Assembly: GCA_030674475.1 (NCBI GenBank)
Contig: JAUSCZ010000037.1
Coordinates: 1 to 60,805 of the forward strand
DNA from: Candidatus Omnitrophota bacterium
GTDB lineage: Bacteria; Omnitrophota; Gorgyraeia; Gygaellales; UBA12090
Length of the DNA: 60,805 nt
Direction: 5' to 3'
Position numbers and translations under genes: made by a program
The notes under the pieces: model-generated
Told to the model about the DNA's origin: nothing
Seen by the model: the letters and a program-made list of their open reading frames with translations, nothing else
The model's database searches: none
In this document: one piece after another, positions 2,701-18,961 of the stretch
How positions within the stretch are numbered: position 1 is the first letter of the stretch
Layout: each line of letters starts with the position of its first letter

Positions 2701-2750
2701 TTTTTATCCGTGTGTATCCGTATTTTTAAATCCGTGTCCATCCGTGTTTA
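2701..2750. repeat. ATCCGTGT-type short repeat cluster
   Basis: Four ATCCGT(G/A)T units. Inverted counterpart (ACACGGAT units) at 9338-9395. Confidence 0.7.
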
Positions 2751-4855
2751 AAATTAATCCTTATAATTTAGCGCCGCTCATCAGTTTTATTTTTCTTCTG
2801 GCCGGTGGATTTTATGTAATTAAAAAAGGCCGCGGACAGGTTTTCAATTGGCTGTTTGCTTTGGCCATTCTTTCCCTGGCGGTAATGGAATTAGGGAATT
2901 TTATGGTCCTGATTTCAGCTTCAAACGCCAGGGCCTTATTCTGGCAGAGATGGGTATTCGTCAGCGCCGCTTTTCTGCCTCTTGCCTGGGTTGTGTTTAG
3001 CCTGATATTTGCCAGAGATAATTATCGGCTATTATTGAAAAAATGGCTTTGGTATTTGGCGTTAATTTTGTTTATTACTTTAGGATTTTTGTTCTTTCTT
3101 GGGCATAAATCTCTGCTCAGGCCGGCAGAGGAACATTCTCGCTTTATCCTGGGGCCGGTGGGCCGTTATTTTTTGAATTTATTCTTATTAAATTTAGTGC
3201 TTGTCCTCTTGAATTTTGAGAACACCCTCCGTTTTTCTTTCGGAAAACAACGAAGTAGGATTAAGTGGATGATTCGAGGATTCTCTATTTATCTTTGGTC
3301 GTATGTTGTCTTGAGCAGTCTGGCTTTACTTTTTTCCTACATTGATCCGCGGTTTACTGCTTTGGGCTCTCTGGCTATAATCAGCGGAGTTTTTTCCTGC
3401 GCCTATTCCGTTTATAGGTATGGACTTGTGGATGTGGATGTGTATATCGGCAGGCAGGCAGTGTATGCCTCAGCTACCATTACCATTGTCGGGTTCTATT
3501 TATTATTGGTTGGCCTGGTAACCAAGATAGCTATGTTCTGGGGGTTAAATTTAAGGTCATTCTTCTCTTTTTTATTCGCTTTCTTTGTATTCTTCATATT
3601 TATTTGCCTGGTTTTCTCCGGCGGCCTTAAGGAGAGGCTGCGGGTCTTTATTGATCGGGCTATCTATAAAGGTAAGTATGATTACCGAAAAGCATGGGCA
3701 GAGATCAGCCGCAAGATAAGCTCTGAATTCGGGCTGGAGGGAATAGTATCCGCTATTATTCAAGTCGTCGCTGAAGATATTAACCTGAAGCAGGTCTCTA
3801 TTTTGCTTTTGAATAAAGAGAGAGGATATTTTTATGTAGCCAGGGCCAAAGCCATAAATGGGAAGGTTTCTAAGAATGTCCAGTTCAATCAGGATAGTGA
3901 ATTTGTGGATTGGTTAGTCAGATACGCGGATCCGCTGGTGATAAAGATGTTGGCGGACAAGTCGGATACTCTTAAGATTTTTGAAAGCGAAAAGAAGAAT
4001 TTTGAGGATTTAGGGGCAGAGGTGATAGTTTCGCTGGTGGCAAAACAACAGTTAGTCGGAATATTGTGCGCGGGGGGAAAGCCCTCGGGCGAGCCTTTTG
4101 CCGGCGAGGATCTGGAATTGTTAAAGAGAATCGCCGAACAGGCGGGAATCGCTATTTTAAACGCTCAGCTATCCGAAGAGTTAATGGTCTCCAAAGAGAT
4201 GGAGTCGCTTTATAAGGTATCTTCATTTTTAATTCACGATCTGAAGAATTTCTCCTCCGTGCTTTCTATGGTAGCTCATAACGCGCGGGAGAATTTTGAT
4301 AAGCCGGAATTTCGCCGGGATGCCTTAGCTACAATATCCAATACTGTGCTGAGAATGAATAATCTTATGCAAAAGCTGTCTATTTTACCTAAAGAGCTGG
4401 AGCTCAAATTCAGTTTAACTGATTTAAATTATGCTGTATCCCAGGCGCTGGCTAAATCCAGGGTGGAGGATGCCTCTGGAATACGGTTAGTTAAAGAGCT
4501 TAACGCGATACCGCGAGTAATGGCGGACAGCGAATATATCGAGAAGGTGTTTTTGAATCTTATTCTTAATGCCGTAGAAGCAATGCCCGGGGGAGGAGAA
4601 ATAAGGATAAGCTCCCGGGTTAATGAAAAATTCGTGGAATTTAACTTAAGAGATACCGGCTGTGGTATGCCTCTTGAGTTTATAGACAAGCATTTGTTTA
4701 AGCCGTTTCAAAGCACCAAGAATAAAGGGCTGGGAATAGGGTTATTTCAGTGTAAGACGATTATCGAGGCGCATAAGGGTAAGATGGACGTCCAGTCAAA
4801 GGTGGGCGAGGGCACAACCTTTATCCTGCGATTGCCCATTAACCGGGATAGATGA
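2744..4855 (+). CDS. prsK: PEP-CTERM system histidine kinase PrsK (multi-TM sensor, GAF, HisKA, HATPase)
   Basis: Multiple TM helices, YDYRKAW, H-box SSFLIHDLKN, LFKPFQSTK..GLGIGLFQCK. Adjacent to a PrsR-like regulator and PEP-CTERM genes. Confidence 0.85.
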   Translation: MFKINPYNLAPLISFIFLLAGGFYVIKKGRGQVFNWLFALAILSLAVMELGNFMVLISASNARALFWQRWVFVSAAFLPLAWVVFSLIFARDNYRLLLKKWLWYLALILFITLGFLFFLGHKSLLRPAEEHSRFILGPVGRYFLNLFLLNLVLVLLNFENTLRFSFGKQRSRIKWMIRGFSIYLWSYVVLSSLALLFSYIDPRFTALGSLAIISGVFSCAYSVYRYGLVDVDVYIGRQAVYASATITIVGFYLLLVGLVTKIAMFWGLNLRSFFSFLFAFFVFFIFICLVFSGGLKERLRVFIDRAIYKGKYDYRKAWAEISRKISSEFGLEGIVSAIIQVVAEDINLKQVSILLLNKERGYFYVARAKAINGKVSKNVQFNQDSEFVDWLVRYADPLVIKMLADKSDTLKIFESEKKNFEDLGAEVIVSLVAKQQLVGILCAGGKPSGEPFAGEDLELLKRIAEQAGIAILNAQLSEELMVSKEMESLYKVSSFLIHDLKNFSSVLSMVAHNARENFDKPEFRRDALATISNTVLRMNNLMQKLSILPKELELKFSLTDLNYAVSQALAKSRVEDASGIRLVKELNAIPRVMADSEYIEKVFLNLILNAVEAMPGGGEIRISSRVNEKFVEFNLRDTGCGMPLEFIDKHLFKPFQSTKNKGLGIGLFQCKTIIEAHKGKMDVQSKVGEGTTFILRLPINRDR

Positions 4856-12432: not shown

Positions 12433-13680
12433 GTGAAAGTTATTATGTATGAAAACAATTTAAAAGATTTTCTGAAATTGACCCTGAAGAATTGTATGCA
12501 TCTTTTAAAATCAAAAGGAGGGTCGGTTTTTTTATTTGATAACGAGAAACAGGATTTGGCGCTGAAGATATACCGCAGTTCCAACAGCCGGCGCCTGAGC
12601 GGGATAAGAGAAAGGTTAGGGCAGGGTGTTTCGGGAGTGGTTGCCTCTAAAAGGGAGCCCATCCTGGTGAGAGATATCAGGATTGACCCGCGTTTCCGGA
12701 ATATGAAGAGATTCAGCCATTATCGGACCAATTCTTTTCTTTCCGTGCCTTTGGTGGCCGCGGACAAGCTTATTGGTGTTATCAATATCAGCGAGAGGAT
12801 TTCCGGGAAGCCCTTTACTTCAAAAGACCTGCAAATTCTTTTCCTTATTTCAAATTATATCGCGATCGCGATACACAAAAACCAGCTCTATGAAAAGACC
12901 AGGGAGCTTAACCAGGCGTTAAGCGTGGCGAAAGACATTGAAGACGGCGAGCAGGATCAGTTAAAAAAATTCGCCTCTATCGGTAAGCTTGTTGCTGGAA
13001 TCGCGCATGAGTTAAACAACCCGCTGGATGGAGTTATGAGGTATGTTAATATTTCCTTAGGCCACCTGAATGATGACGGCATTGTCCGTGAATATCTGCT
13101 GAACGCCAAAAAGGGCTTAAGCCGGATTGCCGGCACCATAAGGTCTCTTTTGGATTTCGCGCAAGTGTATTCCCCGGTATTCAACAGGCCCATTGACATA
13201 AATAAGACGATTGAAGACTCTCTTCTTATGACCAGCCATCATATCCTTATTAATAATATTAAAGTGGTAAAACAGCTCAACCCGCGCTTACCCGCGGCCT
13301 GCGACAACGGATTAAAATTAGTATTTATTAATATTATAAAGAACGCCTGCGATGCTATCGGCACGGGTGGCGGCACCATAAAGGTTTCAACCGGAATAAA
13401 AAATAGACGTATTGAAATCAGGTTTAAGGATACGGGCCACGGCATACCGGAGGAAATCCAGAAAAAGATATTTGAACCATTTTTCACCACTAAAGAATTA
13501 GGAAACGGTTCAGGTTTAGGCCTGGCTATCTGCCGCGACATTGTGCAAAGATATAAGGGCAAAATATATTTGGAACAAGGTAAAGGCAGGGGGGCAAATT
13601 TTGTCATAGAACTGCCTGTTGATGCCTGCCTGCCGGACAGGCAGGAGTTGAATCCGCCCAGAGGCAAAAACGATGGTTGA
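12433..13680 (+). CDS. GAF-domain sensor histidine kinase (NtrB-like)
   Basis: GAF (G.GVSG.VA, FLSVPL), H-box AGIAHELNNPL, FEPFFTTK..G.GSGLGL. Confidence 0.9.
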   Translation: MKVIMYENNLKDFLKLTLKNCMHLLKSKGGSVFLFDNEKQDLALKIYRSSNSRRLSGIRERLGQGVSGVVASKREPILVRDIRIDPRFRNMKRFSHYRTNSFLSVPLVAADKLIGVINISERISGKPFTSKDLQILFLISNYIAIAIHKNQLYEKTRELNQALSVAKDIEDGEQDQLKKFASIGKLVAGIAHELNNPLDGVMRYVNISLGHLNDDGIVREYLLNAKKGLSRIAGTIRSLLDFAQVYSPVFNRPIDINKTIEDSLLMTSHHILINNIKVVKQLNPRLPAACDNGLKLVFINIIKNACDAIGTGGGTIKVSTGIKNRRIEIRFKDTGHGIPEEIQKKIFEPFFTTKELGNGSGLGLAICRDIVQRYKGKIYLEQGKGRGANFVIELPVDACLPDRQELNPPRGKNDG

Positions 13681-15103
13681 TAATCATATCCTTATAGCGG
13701 ATGACGAGCCGTTGACCAGGCAATCTCTTTATGAGATTTTAAAATTCGAGGGATACCGGGTTACTACCGCTAAGGATGGGCTGGAAGCCCTGGGATTGAT
13801 AGAAAAACTCCTGCCGGATATAGTGATTTCTGATATGAAGATGCCCGGGATGGAGGGGCTGCAGTTAGTCAAAGAGATGAAGGCCAGGGGCCTGGAGATA
13901 CCGGTGATATTAATTACCGGATATGGCTCTATTGAAGCCGCGGTAGAGGCGATGCGGGAGGGGGCGTTTGATTATGTCACTAAACCCATAGTGGACAGTG
14001 AAATAAAGGTAGTTATTGAGAAGATAATAAAACAACAGCAGTTAATTGAGGAAAACCGCTGCTTACGGGAGGCCCTTAAGGATACCACCAGGAAAAGTTT
14101 CCAGAATATAGTCGGACAAGACCCCCAGATGCAAAAGATTTACGCCTTGATTGAGATGGTGGCCGACTCTAATGCCACTATTTTACTTCATGGAGAAAGT
14201 GGAACCGGTAAGAGTCTAATCGCCTACGCTATTCATCAGAGCGACACTGCCCGCCGGGATAAGCCGTTAGTTGAAGTGAGCTGCGGAGCTTTGCCTGAGA
14301 CGCTGTTAGAAACCGAATTGTTTGGCCATGTGAGAGGCGCTTTTACCGGAGCCATAAAAGACAGGATCGGGAGGTTTGAACTGGCTGAGAAAGGTTCTAT
14401 ATTTTTGGATGAAATAGACGCCTTCAGCCCCAATCTGCAGGTTAAGCTGCTACGCATACTTCAGAGCGGAGAGTTTGAAAGGGTGGGAGATACTAAGACC
14501 GTAAAGGTTGATGTGCGGGTTATTGCCGCCACTAACCAGGACTTAAACGAAGCCATAAAAAAAGGAAAGTTCCGGGAGGATTTGTATTATCGTTTAAACG
14601 TGATTTCCATCAAGATTCCGCCTTTAAGAGAAAGAAGAAACGATATCCCGCTGTTATTGGAATATTTTCTGGAAAAGAAAAATAATGAGGTTAATAAGAA
14701 TAATAAAAAGGTAACCGGCATCTCTAAAGAGGCAATGTTGGTTTTATCGCAATATAATTGGCCGGGTAATGTCAGGGAACTGGAAAATATTGTTGAGCGT
14801 TCGGTTATTCTTACCAGAGGAAACATTGTGGGAATACAGGACCTGCCCGAATTTTTTCATAAAACGGATATTCCGTTTGAGGAAGCTATGTTAACAGGCG
14901 TTTCAGGCAGGCCGCAGGCGAAATCACTGCGCCAGGCGCTTAAGAGCCCGGAGAGACAGGTTATCCAGGATGCTTTAGAACAGGCCGGAGGGAATCGTAA
15001 GGATACCGCGGCCAGATTAGGTATAAATCGCACCACATTATATAATAAAATGAAGGAGTATGGTTTATTGAAAAGAAGAACCGCGGTTAAGGAATCAGAA
15101 TGA
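13673..15103 (+). CDS. Sigma54-dependent NtrC/AtoC-family response regulator
   Basis: REC domain, GESGTGKS, GAFTGA, WPGNVRELEN, HTH. Confidence 0.93.
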   Translation: MVDNHILIADDEPLTRQSLYEILKFEGYRVTTAKDGLEALGLIEKLLPDIVISDMKMPGMEGLQLVKEMKARGLEIPVILITGYGSIEAAVEAMREGAFDYVTKPIVDSEIKVVIEKIIKQQQLIEENRCLREALKDTTRKSFQNIVGQDPQMQKIYALIEMVADSNATILLHGESGTGKSLIAYAIHQSDTARRDKPLVEVSCGALPETLLETELFGHVRGAFTGAIKDRIGRFELAEKGSIFLDEIDAFSPNLQVKLLRILQSGEFERVGDTKTVKVDVRVIAATNQDLNEAIKKGKFREDLYYRLNVISIKIPPLRERRNDIPLLLEYFLEKKNNEVNKNNKKVTGISKEAMLVLSQYNWPGNVRELENIVERSVILTRGNIVGIQDLPEFFHKTDIPFEEAMLTGVSGRPQAKSLRQALKSPERQVIQDALEQAGGNRKDTAARLGINRTTLYNKMKEYGLLKRRTAVKESE

Positions 15104-16116
15104 AGAAGGTCAACTCCTTCGAGGAGCTTGTTGATATTAAGCAATGGCAGGGAATACAAGAGCATTTTTCCGAGGTTATAGGGGCTGCTATTCGCACTAT
15201 AGACCCACTCGGTAACCCGCTTACCGCCATTAGCAGGCCTACTAGGCTCTGCGCGGAGATTATTAACGCTTCCCCGATGGGCATGGCTAAATGCGTGGAG
15301 TGCTTTTCGCCTTCTTTAGTTAATTTGGTAACAAATGAGATGTGGAAGGATGGCAGGCAGTGTCATCTTGGTTTATATAATTTTTCCATTCCGGTCAGCC
15401 TGCCCGAGAATCAGATAATCGCTTATATCCTGGTTGGCCCGGTTCTTTTGGGTGAACGTCAGAAGCCGGAAAAATATCGTGAGAAAGCGGCGGAATTAGG
15501 CATAGATTTTGATAAATTTGCCGATGCCTTTATAGAAATCAAGGATTTTTCTTTCTCCGCGATTCAATCGGTGCTTGAATTGCTGTGGGATGTTGTTTCT
15601 TACATTGTGGAAATAGACTACCACCGGTTTAAACTTGGAAAAACCATTCCTCTGCCCAGCTTAAGCAAAATGGTGTATAAATTTTACACTGAGAAACTGC
15701 TGAACGCGCTTTTAGACGTTTCTTGCGGTGTGTTTGGCGGTGAACTTGGCTCTATTATGTTATTGAACGAGGAAACCGGCGAGCTATTCATCAAGATAAG
15801 CCGGGGTATAAAGAAAGATATAATTAAAAATACCCGCCTTAAAATAGGCGAGGGAATTGCCGGTTTAGCGGCCCAGGAGGGAAAAATTTTATTGGTTAAC
15901 GATAAAATCGCGGATGAACGAATCAAGGGACGGTTTCAGCGGCCGGAGATACAATCCGCGGTCGTGGCTCCAATCCAGACAGAGGGTAAGCTTCTGGGGG
16001 TTATGAATATCGGGACCCGCTATGCTTCGAATAAATTTGATTTAGAAAATGTTGAGATTTTGCGCCAATTAGTAAAGTTAACCGTAGTTTCCTTCCAGGA
16101 TATTCCCGCCGCGTAA
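15100..16116 (+). CDS. PocR ligand-binding + GAF domain protein with no output domain
   Basis: PocR pattern (C...C...CHLGL.....PV......YILVGP) followed by GAF (GSIMLL, LKIGEGIAG, LLGVMNI). Confidence 0.75.
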   Translation: MKKVNSFEELVDIKQWQGIQEHFSEVIGAAIRTIDPLGNPLTAISRPTRLCAEIINASPMGMAKCVECFSPSLVNLVTNEMWKDGRQCHLGLYNFSIPVSLPENQIIAYILVGPVLLGERQKPEKYREKAAELGIDFDKFADAFIEIKDFSFSAIQSVLELLWDVVSYIVEIDYHRFKLGKTIPLPSLSKMVYKFYTEKLLNALLDVSCGVFGGELGSIMLLNEETGELFIKISRGIKKDIIKNTRLKIGEGIAGLAAQEGKILLVNDKIADERIKGRFQRPEIQSAVVAPIQTEGKLLGVMNIGTRYASNKFDLENVEILRQLVKLTVVSFQDIPAA

Positions 16117-16138
16117 AACGAGATTGTTTCGTAATCTT

Positions 16139-17521
16139 TCATTTTTTCCTAAGATAGGAAGGAAGGATCTTTAATTCTTCCCGATATTTAGCAATTGTCC
16201 GCCGGGCCACCCGCAGGCCTTGGCCGCGTAAGATACTTACGACTTTAGCATCGCTTAAAGGATGCTGTCCGTCTTCGCTGTCAATAAGCGAGGCTATCTG
16301 CGTCTTTACCGTATTCGTGGATATGTCGCCTTCCTGGTCAGTCTTAAAAGAACCGCTAAAAAAATAACTTAATCCAAATATGCCATAAGGGGTCTGGATA
16401 TACTTGCTGTTGACCACCCGGCTGATAGTAGATTCGTTTCTTTCCACTTTTTGGGCGACTTCCTTCATGGTCAGCGGCTTAAGGTGGCCGTATCCGTGTT
16501 CAAAGAATTCCCTTTGTTTTTGGACTATGTATTCCGCGACCCTGCTAATGGTTTCTTGTCTCTGGCTCACCGCCCTGGCTAACCAAATCGCGGAGCCTAA
16601 TCGCTCTTTTAAATATTTTCTGACTTCTTCGGGGGTATCTTTTTTTTTGAGCAGATCCTTATACTGTGAGCTTATCTTAAGGGAAGGAAGGTCTTGGCCA
16701 TTAACGGTTATTTCGTAGTCATTATCCCTCTTTTCTACGATTACGTCAGGCAGAATCCGTCTGGTTGCTGATTGGTGAAAAATTCTTCCTGGTTTGGGAT
16801 CCAGGGCGGAGATTTCCTTTAAAGCCGTCTTTATTAATTCAGGAGTGACCTTCAACTTCCGGGCAATTAATTCAACCTTATTCTTAGCTAAATCAACCAG
16901 GTGGTTTTCCACAACCTTATAGGCTAAAGAATTACGCCTTCCTTTGAAGTTAAGCTGAATGAGCAGACACTCCTTTAAATTCCTCGATCCCGCTCCAGGA
17001 GGCTCAAAGGTCTGAATCAGGGAAAGCACGCTTTGAGTGTTTTGGGGGCTGACTTTTAAATTTTCCGTTATTATTTCTAAACTGCCCTGGAAATAGCCAT
17101 TTTCATCTATCTCGCCGATGATAAGCTCGCCTATTTTATAATCCGTTTTACTAAGCGGTTGCAGCCTTAACTGCCTGAGGAGATGCTCGTGGAGGGTCTG
17201 TTGTTTAATAATCAAGCTTTCTTGATAGCCTTGTCTTTTTTTTAGTTCCTGCTGGCTATACCCCGTGTCAAAGCCGTCCTCAAAATCTCTTCGGTCCTGG
17301 TCAATCAATTCTGTCAATCGTTCAATTTCCAGGTCTTGCGCGCGCTCCTTAAGCTCTGATTCCTGCGGTAGGTCTTCTATGGCCGGATTTTCTTCTATTT
17401 GCTGTTCCAGATAGGTCTTTAGTTCAAATAAAGGCAACTGCAGGATATGTATAGACTGCCTCATCTGAGGCGTCAAAGCCATTTTCTGAGCTAATTTTTG
17501 CGATAATCGCACCTTCATCAC
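16139..17521 (-). CDS. rpoN: RNA polymerase sigma-54 factor
   Basis: LTPQMRQSIHILQL, LKPLTMKEVA...ESTISR, RpoN box ARRTIAKYRE. Confidence 0.97.
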   Translation of the reverse strand: MMKVRLSQKLAQKMALTPQMRQSIHILQLPLFELKTYLEQQIEENPAIEDLPQESELKERAQDLEIERLTELIDQDRRDFEDGFDTGYSQQELKKRQGYQESLIIKQQTLHEHLLRQLRLQPLSKTDYKIGELIIGEIDENGYFQGSLEIITENLKVSPQNTQSVLSLIQTFEPPGAGSRNLKECLLIQLNFKGRRNSLAYKVVENHLVDLAKNKVELIARKLKVTPELIKTALKEISALDPKPGRIFHQSATRRILPDVIVEKRDNDYEITVNGQDLPSLKISSQYKDLLKKKDTPEEVRKYLKERLGSAIWLARAVSQRQETISRVAEYIVQKQREFFEHGYGHLKPLTMKEVAQKVERNESTISRVVNSKYIQTPYGIFGLSYFFSGSFKTDQEGDISTNTVKTQIASLIDSEDGQHPLSDAKVVSILRGQGLRVARRTIAKYREELKILPSYLRKK

Positions 17522-17570
17522 CGTATACTCCTATGCCTGTATAGTTACTGTTTTAAAAAGTAGTGCCTGT

Positions 17571-17587
17571 AGCATATTATATGCCAA
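17571..17587 (-). promoter_or_regulatory. Sigma54-type -24/-12 site upstream of rpoN (overlaps a degenerate dif-like 28-mer at 17562-17589)
   Basis: Minus strand TTGGCATATAATATGCT with correct GG-GC spacing, about 50 nt before the rpoN start. Confidence 0.6.
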
Positions 17588-17855
17588 CTTACCACTTTAG
17601 ACAAGATTTTATTTTACTAAGCCTTGACAAAGTAAAATTTCGGGGTATATTTACTATTTTGCATTCCCAGTCTGCATCCAATCCAACAGAGATTCTCTTG
17701 ACGGTTGGCTATTTTGTATTAAAATATGAATATAATCTCATAATAACCTGCATGTTTATGTTTAAAGCGTAAAGTGAAACAAATAAAACCGTAGAGAGCC
17801 TAATAGATAATAAAGAGAATAGCAATAAACCTTTAGCCGGGCACTTACCAGGAAA

Positions 17856-18701
17856 ATGGGAAAATTATATAATTTAACCAAAGATAAATTAATTAGCTTG
17901 TATATAAATGATAAAAAATCTCTCGGAGACATTGCTAAATTATATATAGTCTCGCGAACAGCGGTCTTTAAAAAACTCAAGAAATATGGTATTGCGCAAC
18001 GTTCGAAGTCTGACGCTAGGATCGAAGCTCAGAAACAAGGCAAAGTGCCGCAACAGTTCTTTGATATAAACGAAAACTTTTTCCGTAGTTGGTCGCCAGA
18101 GATGGCATATGTATTAGGCCTGCTCATAACTGATGGATGCATTTCCAATAACGGCACAGTATTGCTTTGTATGAACGATCAAGAGATACTTGAAAAAGTT
18201 AAGAAAGTCATGGGATCGACCCATAAAATTGAGCCGTCCAAGTATCAGGAAAAGTTATATATTTTTCATTTTGCAAGAGAAAATATGGTAAAGGATTTAG
18301 AAAGTCTAGGAGTAGTCCCTAAAAAAAGCCTTATTGTTACTTTTCCCAATGTACCTGATGAACATTTGTCAGATTTTATAAGGGGCGTCTTTGATGGCGA
18401 TGGGAGCATTTTTCTTGATAAAAGGAGCAAAAATTGCCCCATAAGGAGCGCTTTTTATAGCGGTTCAAAACATTTTATTGAAAAATTAGAAGATAACCTA
18501 ATTAATCTCGGGATGCCTAAAAGAAGAATATCACAGCAAAAAACCAAGAATGGGATATATTATGGGATTAGATATGGCCATAAAAATAGTCTGAAGTTGT
18601 TCAATATTTTATACAAAAACGCTAAAAATAGGCTATATTTGGACCGTAAATACAGGCGGTTTTTAGAAGGGATTAAAATAGGCGGCGGTTTGGATGGATA
18701 A
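17856..18701 (+). CDS. Free-standing double-motif LAGLIDADG endonuclease-like protein with N-terminal HTH
   Basis: MAYVLGLLITDG and FIRGVFDGDGS motifs. N-terminal HTH SLGDIAKLYIVSRTAVFKKLKKYGI. Confidence 0.85.
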   Translation: MGKLYNLTKDKLISLYINDKKSLGDIAKLYIVSRTAVFKKLKKYGIAQRSKSDARIEAQKQGKVPQQFFDINENFFRSWSPEMAYVLGLLITDGCISNNGTVLLCMNDQEILEKVKKVMGSTHKIEPSKYQEKLYIFHFARENMVKDLESLGVVPKKSLIVTFPNVPDEHLSDFIRGVFDGDGSIFLDKRSKNCPIRSAFYSGSKHFIEKLEDNLINLGMPKRRISQQKTKNGIYYGIRYGHKNSLKLFNILYKNAKNRLYLDRKYRRFLEGIKIGGGLDG

Positions 18702-18900
18702 AGAGCTACAGGAATGGTATAATTTACATAAATTTCATTTTTATAGCGGTAGTTATGAAACTAAAGACTTGGCTAATTTCTTAGTAGTTAGCCCCCGGAC
18801 AATTCAGAGATGGCTGAAAGAAAGCACCAAGCCAAATAAGGCGCAATTAGTCCAGATTAATAAATATTTGGCTCAAAAAGAGCTCAAAGACTCTTTATAA
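18694..18900 (+). CDS. Small HTH DNA-binding protein
   Basis: TKDLANFLVVSPRTIQRWLKESTKP. Overlaps the LAGLIDADG stop. Confidence 0.7.
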   Translation: MDKELQEWYNLHKFHFYSGSYETKDLANFLVVSPRTIQRWLKESTKPNKAQLVQINKYLAQKELKDSL

Positions 18901-18933
18901 ACAGGGTAATTCTTTCCGTCTGTCTGTCGCACT

Positions 18934-18961
18934 ACTTCCTCTAATATATCTTATGTTAACT
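18934..18961 (+). other. dif: Chromosomal dif site (XerC arm - 6 bp - XerD arm)
   Basis: ACTTCCTCTAA TATATC TTATGTTAACT, close to B. subtilis dif (ACTTCCTAGAA TATATA TTATGTAAACT). Intergenic, and located where gene orientation switches. Confidence 0.88.

Follow-up and report, generated by a model that had tools for sequence, protein, structure and literature searches.

The question that this locus raises is what kind of element lies against dif, the site of the host recombinases XerC and XerD (XerCD), in a chromosome of Candidatus Omnitrophota. The analysed stretch, which is referred to as the window, is the whole 60.8-kb contig JAUSCZ010000037.1 (60,805 nt) of an assembly of 2.19 Mb in 42 contigs (GCA_030674475.1; genome G000), and a free-standing LAGLIDADG homing-endonuclease gene and a small helix-turn-helix (HTH) gene are found in it directly to the left of dif. 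The initial annotation of this DNA had proposed that the two genes form a minimal 1.4-kb integrative mobile element that exploits Xer (IMEX), bounded by dif and by a degenerate second dif, or else that they represent a domesticated DNA-binding protein comparable to WhiA. The stretch at approximately 17.65-18.96 kb is best read as a composite selfish cassette that is joined to the XerC side of the sole dif of the chromosome. We give about an even chance to the more specific reading that the cassette is the stranded attR, i.e., the right-hand attachment junction, of an Xer-exploiting phage lineage, and that it now serves as the chromosome's dif with the endonuclease gene as a passenger.

The site at the right end of the cassette, ACTTCCTCTAATATATCTTATGTTAACT (18934..18961, plus strand), is a genuine dif, because it occurs once in the assembly, where the runner-up match reaches 21/28 positions, because the GC skew switches its sign around it (at approximately 17-19 kb) and because its core is common among the relatives. 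In the set of 61 related genomes, the 16-nt core was found in 46, mostly as a single copy, and the reversed-pattern control gave a handful of matches. By analogy, we take the left arm (18934-18944) to be the XerC side and the right arm (18951-18961) to be the XerD side of the central region (18945-18950). The canonical dif of the host's order is ACTTCCTATAATATATCTTATGTTAACT, and the window's dif has C, not A, at position 8; the canonical left arm, ACTTCCTATAA, is exact in 33 of the 40 unique sites that have no box of the kind described below. The whole assembly has just two PF00589 genes, which score as XerD (TIGR02225, 394 bits) and XerC (TIGR02224, 357 bits), both above the NCBIfam cut-offs. 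A search with the XerC protein gave matches in 41 of 41 relatives and most of the listed genomes have two, which is consistent with the presence of XerC and XerD. No integrase was found in the window, as the initial annotation had stated.

The association of the module with dif is real and general. The small gene (18694..18900, plus strand), which is predicted to encode a 68-amino-acid protein of the XRE/Cro type with weak matches to HTH_3 and HTH_17, overlaps the 281-amino-acid open reading frame (ORF) of the endonuclease by 8 nt and ends 33 nt before dif, in agreement with what had been read from the window at the outset. A metagenome scan with the alignment of the small ORF gave 126 relatives, the best 80 of which were kept and pooled with the loci from the genomes to a total of 92 loci; 78 of these had at least 170 bp of downstream sequence and were testable. 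(Handles that begin with G denote genomes or records and those with L denote loci.) In 71 of the 78, the dif core lies within 150 bp downstream on the same strand, a number that counts loci and not independent events because some contigs were recovered twice by different routes (L075 and L123, L128 and L129, L125 and L126). Five of the 61 relatives have a close homologue of the LAGLIDADG protein that includes the N-terminal HTH (58-70% identity), and in all five dif is 250-360 bp downstream on the same strand. The one-genome-per-species scan gave nine LAGLIDADG loci, all in Omnitrophota and all beside dif, three of which were on contigs that had already been counted, so that 11 of the 11 distinct close LAGLIDADG loci from genomes are beside dif. 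At 16 loci with distant LAGLIDADG paralogues or inteins, no dif was found nearby. The linkage that the initial annotation had suspected from a single locus holds, therefore, when the distances of the homologues to dif are compared.

The seven exceptions among the 78 loci are informative in themselves. In three of them (L099, L124 and L146), a foreign right arm follows the central region, with the left arm and the box in place; one (L145) has an extra ORF before dif, and one (L152) is too short to judge. In the remaining two (L149 and L150), the endonuclease gene lies inside the copy of the small ORF and is followed by a second, 76-amino-acid HTH gene, a variant box and dif. A closer look at L149 (192-644 and 651-1880) shows that the LAGLIDADG gene is in frame within the small HTH copy after approximately residue 50 and is itself frameshifted, that the second HTH paralogue with its variant box AATCTGACACT adjoins dif and that the ORFs further upstream resemble, by eye, a HEPN/nucleotidyltransferase-like pair. 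What stays constant is the small HTH gene together with the box and a dif whose outer six bases on the XerC side are non-canonical. The distribution of this unit is patchy (seven of the 61 related genomes): G046, which has a canonical dif and no HTH gene, shares its genus with G045, and the same applies to six genomes of the genus of G036. An empty allele of the kind that the initial annotation had suggested looking for, with rpoN next to a single dif, is present in G006, in which rpoN is 55 bp from a canonical dif.

The anatomy of the constant unit is strict on one side of the arm boundary and loose on the other. The box, CTGTCGCACT in the window (18924..18933, plus strand; consensus ATGTCGCACT), abuts dif. 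Across 66 unique cassette sites, it has the form (A)TGTCGCAC(T/A) in one fixed register, with 57 exact copies and nine with one mismatch, and the spacer between the stop codon of the small ORF and the box is 17-73 nt long. In these 66 sites, 30 forms of the six outer left-arm bases occur (entropy of 1.0-1.5 bits per position); the inner TATAA of the same arm is kept in 54 and the right arm, TTATGTTAACT, in 63. In the cassette-free genomes, the same six bases are ACTTCC almost without exception, so the outer arm is under relaxed constraint precisely at those sites that have the box and the HTH gene. The outer six bases also turn over faster than the neighbouring ORF; for example, the window and L080 differ in five of the six at a tree distance of 0.11. 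The small HTH family comprises 51 aligned members, in which W8, H12, R39, W40 and P47 are invariant. The AlphaFold2 model of the protein has four helices (predicted local distance difference test, pLDDT, 83.7), and its best neighbours in the PDB, the P22 c2 repressor and controller C proteins, are all weak (E>0.1); the predicted fold is of a generic XRE/Cro type. A predicted complex of XerC and the small HTH protein scored 0.00, which is evidence neither way. Our preferred mechanism is that the HTH protein would bind the box and so assist or control Xer at the weakened arm, because this accounts for both the conserved register and the relaxed arm.

The connection to phages comes from L124, which falls in the IMG/VR virus record G061 (42,321 bp; the tool reports direct terminal repeats and a completeness of 100%). 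The genes of this record include those for a tail, an amidase, a CHAP lysin, RecT, exonucleases, HNH endonucleases and a replication initiator, and a 1098-amino-acid protein matches phage families of unassigned function. A 63-amino-acid homologue of the small ORF (75% identity) is placed between the late and early genes and is followed by a promoter-like sequence, a hairpin and a site in four parts: a box-like GTTCGTCGCACC, a dif-like left arm TAGGGGTATAA, the central region TGGTTC and a right arm AGGAGTTAGCA that is unlike dif. The left arm belongs to the G-rich class that is common in the chromosomal cassettes, and the central region is one base off the common TAGTTC. Searches of the G061 record for a tyrosine (PF00589) or serine (PF00239) recombinase and for a right arm of the host type found none. 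Judged from these features, the G061 site is attP-like, i.e., it resembles the attachment site of a free phage. According to passages in two publications, the TLC-phi attP and difGGI follow this pattern too, with the XerC arm and central region retained and the XerD arm divergent (PMC5357621, PMC6744903). The site lies at 10001-10320 of L191, the locus in G061, and hybrid sites lie at 1375-1420 of L099 and 2325-2360 of L146; L152 is a fragment of a phage that is related to G061.

The point of exchange is visible in two comparisons. L145, which has the host right arm, and L146, which has a foreign one, share 72% identity along 2 kb that end with the last base of the central region; past this base, they show no relation. 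Moreover, the DNA to the right of the hybrid site in L099 is homologous to the DNA to the right of the attP-like site in G061. Exploitation of XerCD best explains why an HTH-box-arm unit abuts dif, because of the attP-like site and of these breaks of homology at the border of the central region. As regards the features by which an IMEX is recognised, there is in G061 a dif-like attachment site and no recombinase of its own, the host has XerC, XerD and a unique dif, and junctions fall at the borders of the central region (L145 versus L146; the foreign right arms of L099, L124 and L146). What was not found is a pair of attL and attR: second sites are not over-represented upstream in 71 loci, and the left junctions abut host genes. 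We regard G061, L099 and L146 as candidate tailed Xer-exploiting phages of Omnitrophota. The Xer-exploiting origin that the initial annotation had suggested is thus favoured by the tie to dif, by the attP-like site and by the breaks at the border, and the form in which it had been suggested, a 1.4-kb IMEX with two sites, is not.

In the reading as a stranded attR, the core (the HTH gene, the box and the left arm) would be the attachment-site module of integrase-less temperate Omnitrophota phages. The module would end in a non-dif right arm in the free phage (attP) and in the central region and right arm of the host in the chromosome (attR), the latter as the product of a strand exchange by XerCD at the central region. 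The copy in the window would be a stranded remnant, because there is no attL and no prophage body here or in more than 70 other loci. Recombination between the resident HTH gene and that of a newly arriving phage may then delete the prophage and swap the outer arm, and the fast turnover of the outer six bases would follow from such swaps. The HTH-LAGLIDADG gene would invade, decay and be lost independently of the core. It is feasible to go one step further and to regard the HTH gene and the box as an Xer accessory module that lets XerCD act on a half-degenerate arm, with which tailed temperate phages would integrate at dif without an integrase, and whose persistence after the decay of the prophage would leave dif dependent on the HTH gene of a phage. 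This step is tentative and we consider it doubtful; if it were true, it would amount to addiction, with the HTH gene and the box kept in dozens of lineages while the endonuclease gene rots.

Several observations weigh against a stranded attR. Neither an attL nor prophage genes were found to the left of the cassette in any chromosomal locus examined, and no integrated full prophage with both junctions was found, so the reading requires that all of the chromosomal copies derive from trimmed remnants, and the trimming is unexplained. The link to phages consists of one complete genome and one short fragment. In the viral collection, the scan with the HTH profile returned only G061 and one weak match, scans with two box patterns returned 178 loci among which only G061 has the HTH gene, and the scan with the LAGLIDADG profile returned nothing. 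A full lysogen was sought by means of the phage RecT in 401 genomes of the phylum, which gave three weak, uninformative matches; the regions around RecT matches in G055, G352 and G403 have no HTH-box-dif arrangement. It is also possible that the phage captured the module from a host by aberrant excision, and transfer could have taken place in either direction. Furthermore, the binding of the HTH protein to the box is presumed. A search for a box regulon gave three copies of the box 9-mer in the window's genome against approximately 14 expected, i.e., no enrichment, and this result, which belongs to the same list, is neutral.

The same anatomy could also be that of a dif accessory that benefits the host, in which the HTH protein and the box regulate Xer at dif, for example to limit the integration of phages there or to control how dimers are resolved, the pair is exchanged by homologous recombination, the endonuclease gene is parasitic upstream and phages occasionally capture the pair. 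This explanation, which we regard as unlikely, would be in line with an ORF that is intact and conserved in 51 aligned members with or without the endonuclease gene, with the strict register of the box and dif, with an outer left arm that is relaxed only where the box is present and with an endonuclease gene that is polymorphic immediately upstream and, in one case, inside the ORF. However, a beneficial accessory would not be expected to be as patchy as seven of 61 genomes, with genomes of the same genus that have a canonical dif and no HTH gene. The module also occupies the typical position of an attachment site between the late and early genes of a complete phage, and the cassette does not block integration, because L099 and L146 carry phage-like DNA at a cassette-bearing dif.

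The second gene of the cassette behaves differently from the first. The 281-amino-acid ORF (17856..18701, plus strand) is apparently intact and free-standing, and its Pfam match to LAGLIDADG_3 (E 2.5e-12, in two stretches) is preceded by weak YlxM/sigma-70-region-4-like HTH matches in the first 50 residues, which confirms the initial description of an HTH-LAGLIDADG gene. The acidic residues of the motifs GLLITDGC (D93) and GVFDGDGS (D182) are invariant in an alignment of four and in one of 23 sequences. In the AlphaFold2 model (pLDDT 85.7), a domain of four helices at the N terminus is followed by two alpha-beta-beta-alpha-beta-beta-alpha halves (81-150 and 168-253), and the top Foldseek matches are LAGLIDADG enzymes of inteins and introns, namely the endonuclease domain of TliVMA (4e-10), I-Tsp061I (4e-9) and I-DmoI (1e-6). 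The phage family phrog_4645, annotated as endonuclease, matches residues 8-271 (E 5e-49), and PADLOC gave weak matches only (HEase, 0.0015; mad1, 0.0009). Its two motifs with a conserved acid, its two-domain fold, and its presence or absence, decay and horizontal transfer are what is found in homing-endonuclease genes. WhiA combines a LAGLIDADG fold with a C-terminal HTH, has no catalytic residues and is conserved by vertical inheritance; its LAGLIDADG domain is a weaker structural neighbour (rank 18 in Foldseek). The protein in the window shares with WhiA the LAGLIDADG fold and an HTH, but its HTH is N-terminal, both catalytic aspartates are kept, the close homologues are patchy (five of 61) and the gene often decays; the WhiA-like domesticated protein that had been offered as an alternative is therefore not supported.

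The endonuclease gene comes and goes within an otherwise constant setting. In blastn, 12456..17652 and 18694..19872 of the window align to adjoining DNA of G002 that is 36 bp apart, so that an insertion of approximately 1.03 kb (17653..18693, plus strand) with the LAGLIDADG gene is missing in this genome of the same genus. A sigma-70-like promoter, TTGACA-16-TATATT, which is directed into the cassette (17624..17651, plus strand; 11/12 consensus matches), is kept in G002, where it is immediately 5' of the small ORF. G005 and G007 also lack the LAGLIDADG gene and, like G002, keep the small ORF, the box and dif. Among 79 loci with the small ORF and dif, the gene is intact in 25 (G045, with an internal deletion that removes motif 1, is included here), full-length with a stop in two, a remnant in 13 and absent in 27, and it is cut by the contig end in five and undecidable in seven. 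A few codons from the N- or C-terminal end of the gene are left in several alleles that seem empty. In G036 and L072, the LAGLIDADG gene is beside a different HTH gene of 98 amino acids with a different box-like end. In the contigs of three groundwater runs, the full gene and a shortened allele of the L081 type co-occur, and no circle or deletion joint was found in the contigs of four runs, although contigs cannot show rare forms. The HTH gene and the box persist at many loci in which the LAGLIDADG gene has decayed or is missing. The LAGLIDADG gene does not, therefore, belong to the core that is linked to dif; it is a separable, phage-type, free-standing homing-endonuclease gene that is predicted to be active.

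The spot upstream of the small ORF collects small selfish genes. In L081, from the same genus, a hicB/hicA-like pair (2728-3298) lies between the rpoN promoter region and a LAGLIDADG remnant of 57 codons; HicA is matched weakly (E 0.07), and Pfam gave no hit for the HicB-like ORF. A deleted relic of the same pair is found at 1-215 of L079, upstream of an intact LAGLIDADG gene. Elsewhere in the genomes, LAGLIDADG domains occur within very long frames of 809-1639 amino acids in G000 (C38, 45625-46194) and in several relatives, and these are probably inteins. Many shorter free-standing LAGLIDADG paralogues without the N-terminal HTH are also present in the related genomes, none of them near dif.

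Comparisons of identity between relatives indicate that the cassette is exchanged horizontally. G000 and G002 share 92.8% identity in RpoN and 96.6% in an NtrC-like activator, and only 62.7% in the small ORF. Between families f1 and f4, the LAGLIDADG proteins are 66-71% identical, compared with 36% for RpoN and 58% for the activator. In family f4, the cassette is located between a DUF134 gene (PF02001) and dif, and DUF134 is the usual left neighbour of dif in the order. The left neighbours of the cassette are host genes of approximately ten kinds, among them those for DUF134, rpoN, an epimerase, a response regulator, AcrB, an HD-domain protein, a nitroreductase and toxin-antitoxin systems. In contexts other than that of the window, the cassette begins 10-20 bp from the end of a host gene, with no dif-like sequence there. 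As a general feature of the order, a DUF134 gene is directly upstream of dif on the same strand in most genomes (gap 12-250 bp), and this pairing is shared by several families, also where different genes lie beyond DUF134 on the left (L022-L069 and many of L070-L158).

Such exchange could in principle be the work of the endonuclease itself. In a purely homing scenario, the LAGLIDADG enzyme would cut the canonical left arm of dif or its flank in chromosomes without the cassette, the repair of the break would copy the endonuclease gene, the HTH gene, the box and a resistant arm, and the copy in the phage would be secondary. The enzyme is presumably active, as both motif aspartates are invariant and the fold matches active enzymes, and the candidates for its target are the 5' region of the small ORF and the canonical left arm. 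Comparisons at the genus level show that 107-132 bp, reaching from the final codons of DUF134 into the middle of the left arm, have given way to the cassette; this stretch includes the outer left arm and lies between conserved flanks (the 3' end of DUF134 and dif), and the synteny of DUF134 and dif would provide homology arms. A perfectly canonical left arm was found in none of 25 loci with an intact endonuclease gene versus two of 40 in which it is absent or a remnant, but this difference carries no statistical weight, and loci with and without the gene show the same range of arm variants. At loci that have lost the endonuclease gene, the box and the HTH gene are still conserved, the approximately ten left contexts share no left homology, and the similarities of the LAGLIDADG and HTH proteins are discordant (68% versus 82% for L083 and the window). 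Moreover, a break of homology at the border of the central region and an attP-like site in a phage are signatures of Xer and not of homing. We consider homing as the sole explanation improbable, and a stranded attR with the endonuclease gene as its passenger fits the break and the phage site better.

The narrowest explanation is that of the initial annotation, in which an intact IMEX of 1.4 kb lies between dif at 18934 and a degenerate direct-repeat dif at 17562 and is excised and integrated by XerCD. The match on which it was founded does exist: 17562..17589 (plus strand), 1.37 kb upstream and in the same orientation, agrees with the window's dif in 19/28 positions, and there is no integrase nearby. 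Matches of at least 19/28 occur at 32 of the 4.39 million strand-positions of the genome, which corresponds to approximately 0.015 expected per 2 kb on one strand, but the rarity is nominal because the earlier reader was free to choose both the position and the side. Across the 71 cassette loci, which come from genomes and metagenomes, the canonical dif is matched upstream about as often as downstream: five in 137 kb versus four in 128 kb at a threshold of at least 19/28, 20 versus 22 at 18/28 and 72 versus 70 at 17/28. In the same-genus alleles of G002, a genome, and L081, a metagenome contig, only the right half of the motif, TATTATATGCCAA(C/T)TTA, is kept and the left arm differs, despite the cassette. 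Neither does the motif bound the variable unit, as G002 lacks the LAGLIDADG gene only and keeps the DNA up to 17652 and from 18694 onwards, and in other contexts the cassette starts 10-20 bp from the end of a host gene with nothing dif-like there. With no attL here or in the 70 other loci, and with the lack of circles or deletion joints in the contigs, which could be seen only if such forms were not rare, a minimal IMEX with two sites is highly improbable; the 17562 motif is a chance-level match and is not supported as a second dif.

A different role for the motif is conceivable. On the minus strand, 17571..17586 reads TGGCATATAATATGCT, of which TGGCAT-N5-ATGCT is conserved with the GG of a sigma-54 -24 and the GC of a -12 element at the proper spacing. 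It is possible that this is a sigma-54-type -24/-12 element in front of rpoN; the assignment goes no further than that because the consensus with at most two mismatches occurs at chance frequency in the window (20 found versus 21 expected) and the case is based on position and conservation within the genus. We also considered 17578-17591 (ATATGCCA followed by ACTTAC) as a relic of the ancestral left flank and outer arm, which was too weak to use.

The left neighbour of the cassette in the window is rpoN, encoding sigma-54 (16139..17521, minus strand; Pfam Sigma54_AID/CBD/DBD, E 1e-17 to 6e-59). Directly to the right of dif (19114-20631), there are two toxin-antitoxin pairs, the first a PIN (VapC) toxin with a MazE/AbrB-type antitoxin and the second a RelE/ParE-like toxin with an AbrB-like antitoxin, identified by eye only; further such pairs follow up to approximately 23 kb. 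A semi-conserved motif, T(G/C)AGCATATTGG (18962-18975 in the window), follows the right arm of dif in many genomes, at both empty and cassette loci, and some of the empty dif sites have a mirrored ATATTGCCA on the left side. In view of these two motifs, the dif of this order may extend beyond 28 bp or have another binding site at its side. Finally, the dif sites of G013 (L030) and G030 (L068) have a canonical central region and right arm, wholly different left arms (TGTTGCTGGAG and GGATAAAGTAG) and no box; these are possibly attR junctions of other elements that integrated at dif.

Among the papers listed by full-text searches of the literature, none was found to describe a homing-endonuclease family at dif, the dif of Omnitrophota or an HTH gene with a box at a degenerate XerC arm. 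The present data document a homing-endonuclease gene family that is tied to the dif region, and they offer a testable candidate, one 68-amino-acid protein and one 10-bp box, for the steering of Xer on a weak site. Even if the reading as an Xer accessory module were wrong, the locus would be a clear natural case of layered selfish elements at a replication terminus.

Among the known systems, phage free-standing homing endonucleases such as the seg and mob genes of T4, together with I-DmoI and I-Tsp061I, resemble the LAGLIDADG gene in the monomeric fold with two motifs and retained acids, in the intergenic placement that is polymorphic at one spot, in the decayed copies and in the similarity to phrog_4645. 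Unlike them, it is found in a bacterial chromosome, has an extra N-terminal HTH and is always beside the dif-linked HTH gene. The box is comparable to the accessory sites of plasmid Xer systems, cer and psi, in which an element of approximately 180 bp is used with PepA, ArgR and ArcA. The likeness consists in a conserved element outside the core, on the XerC side and at a fixed distance, from which an accessory protein could act on Xer; here, however, it is a single 10-bp box, the presumed binder of which is encoded beside it.

The closest relatives are the IMEXs TLC-phi and the GGI. They too have no integrase of their own and use the host's XerC and XerD, their sites have a dif-like inner left arm and central region with a divergent right arm, a good dif is at the right end of the element after integration and a small HTH gene is beside the site. 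According to a passage in the published work on GGI, DUF3653 is the part of XafT that activates XerD (PMC6744903). The small HTH protein described here (68 amino acids, four predicted helices) lacks this domain, as a Pfam scan at E<=0.1 gave generic HTH families only. The present system also differs in its host, an Omnitrophota bacterium, in the phage, which is 42 kb long with genes for a tail, a lysin and RecT and is neither filamentous nor a secretion island, in the degenerate outer half of the XerC arm, in the fixed 10-bp box and in chromosomes that have neither an attL nor an element body. Xer-exploiting elements are known mainly from filamentous phages and from islands of Proteobacteria. 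If the cassette is a stranded attR, the range of such elements would take in an uncultured phylum as well as a 42-kb phage that has tail and RecT genes, and the window would show a chromosome whose sole dif is a hybrid of phage and host.

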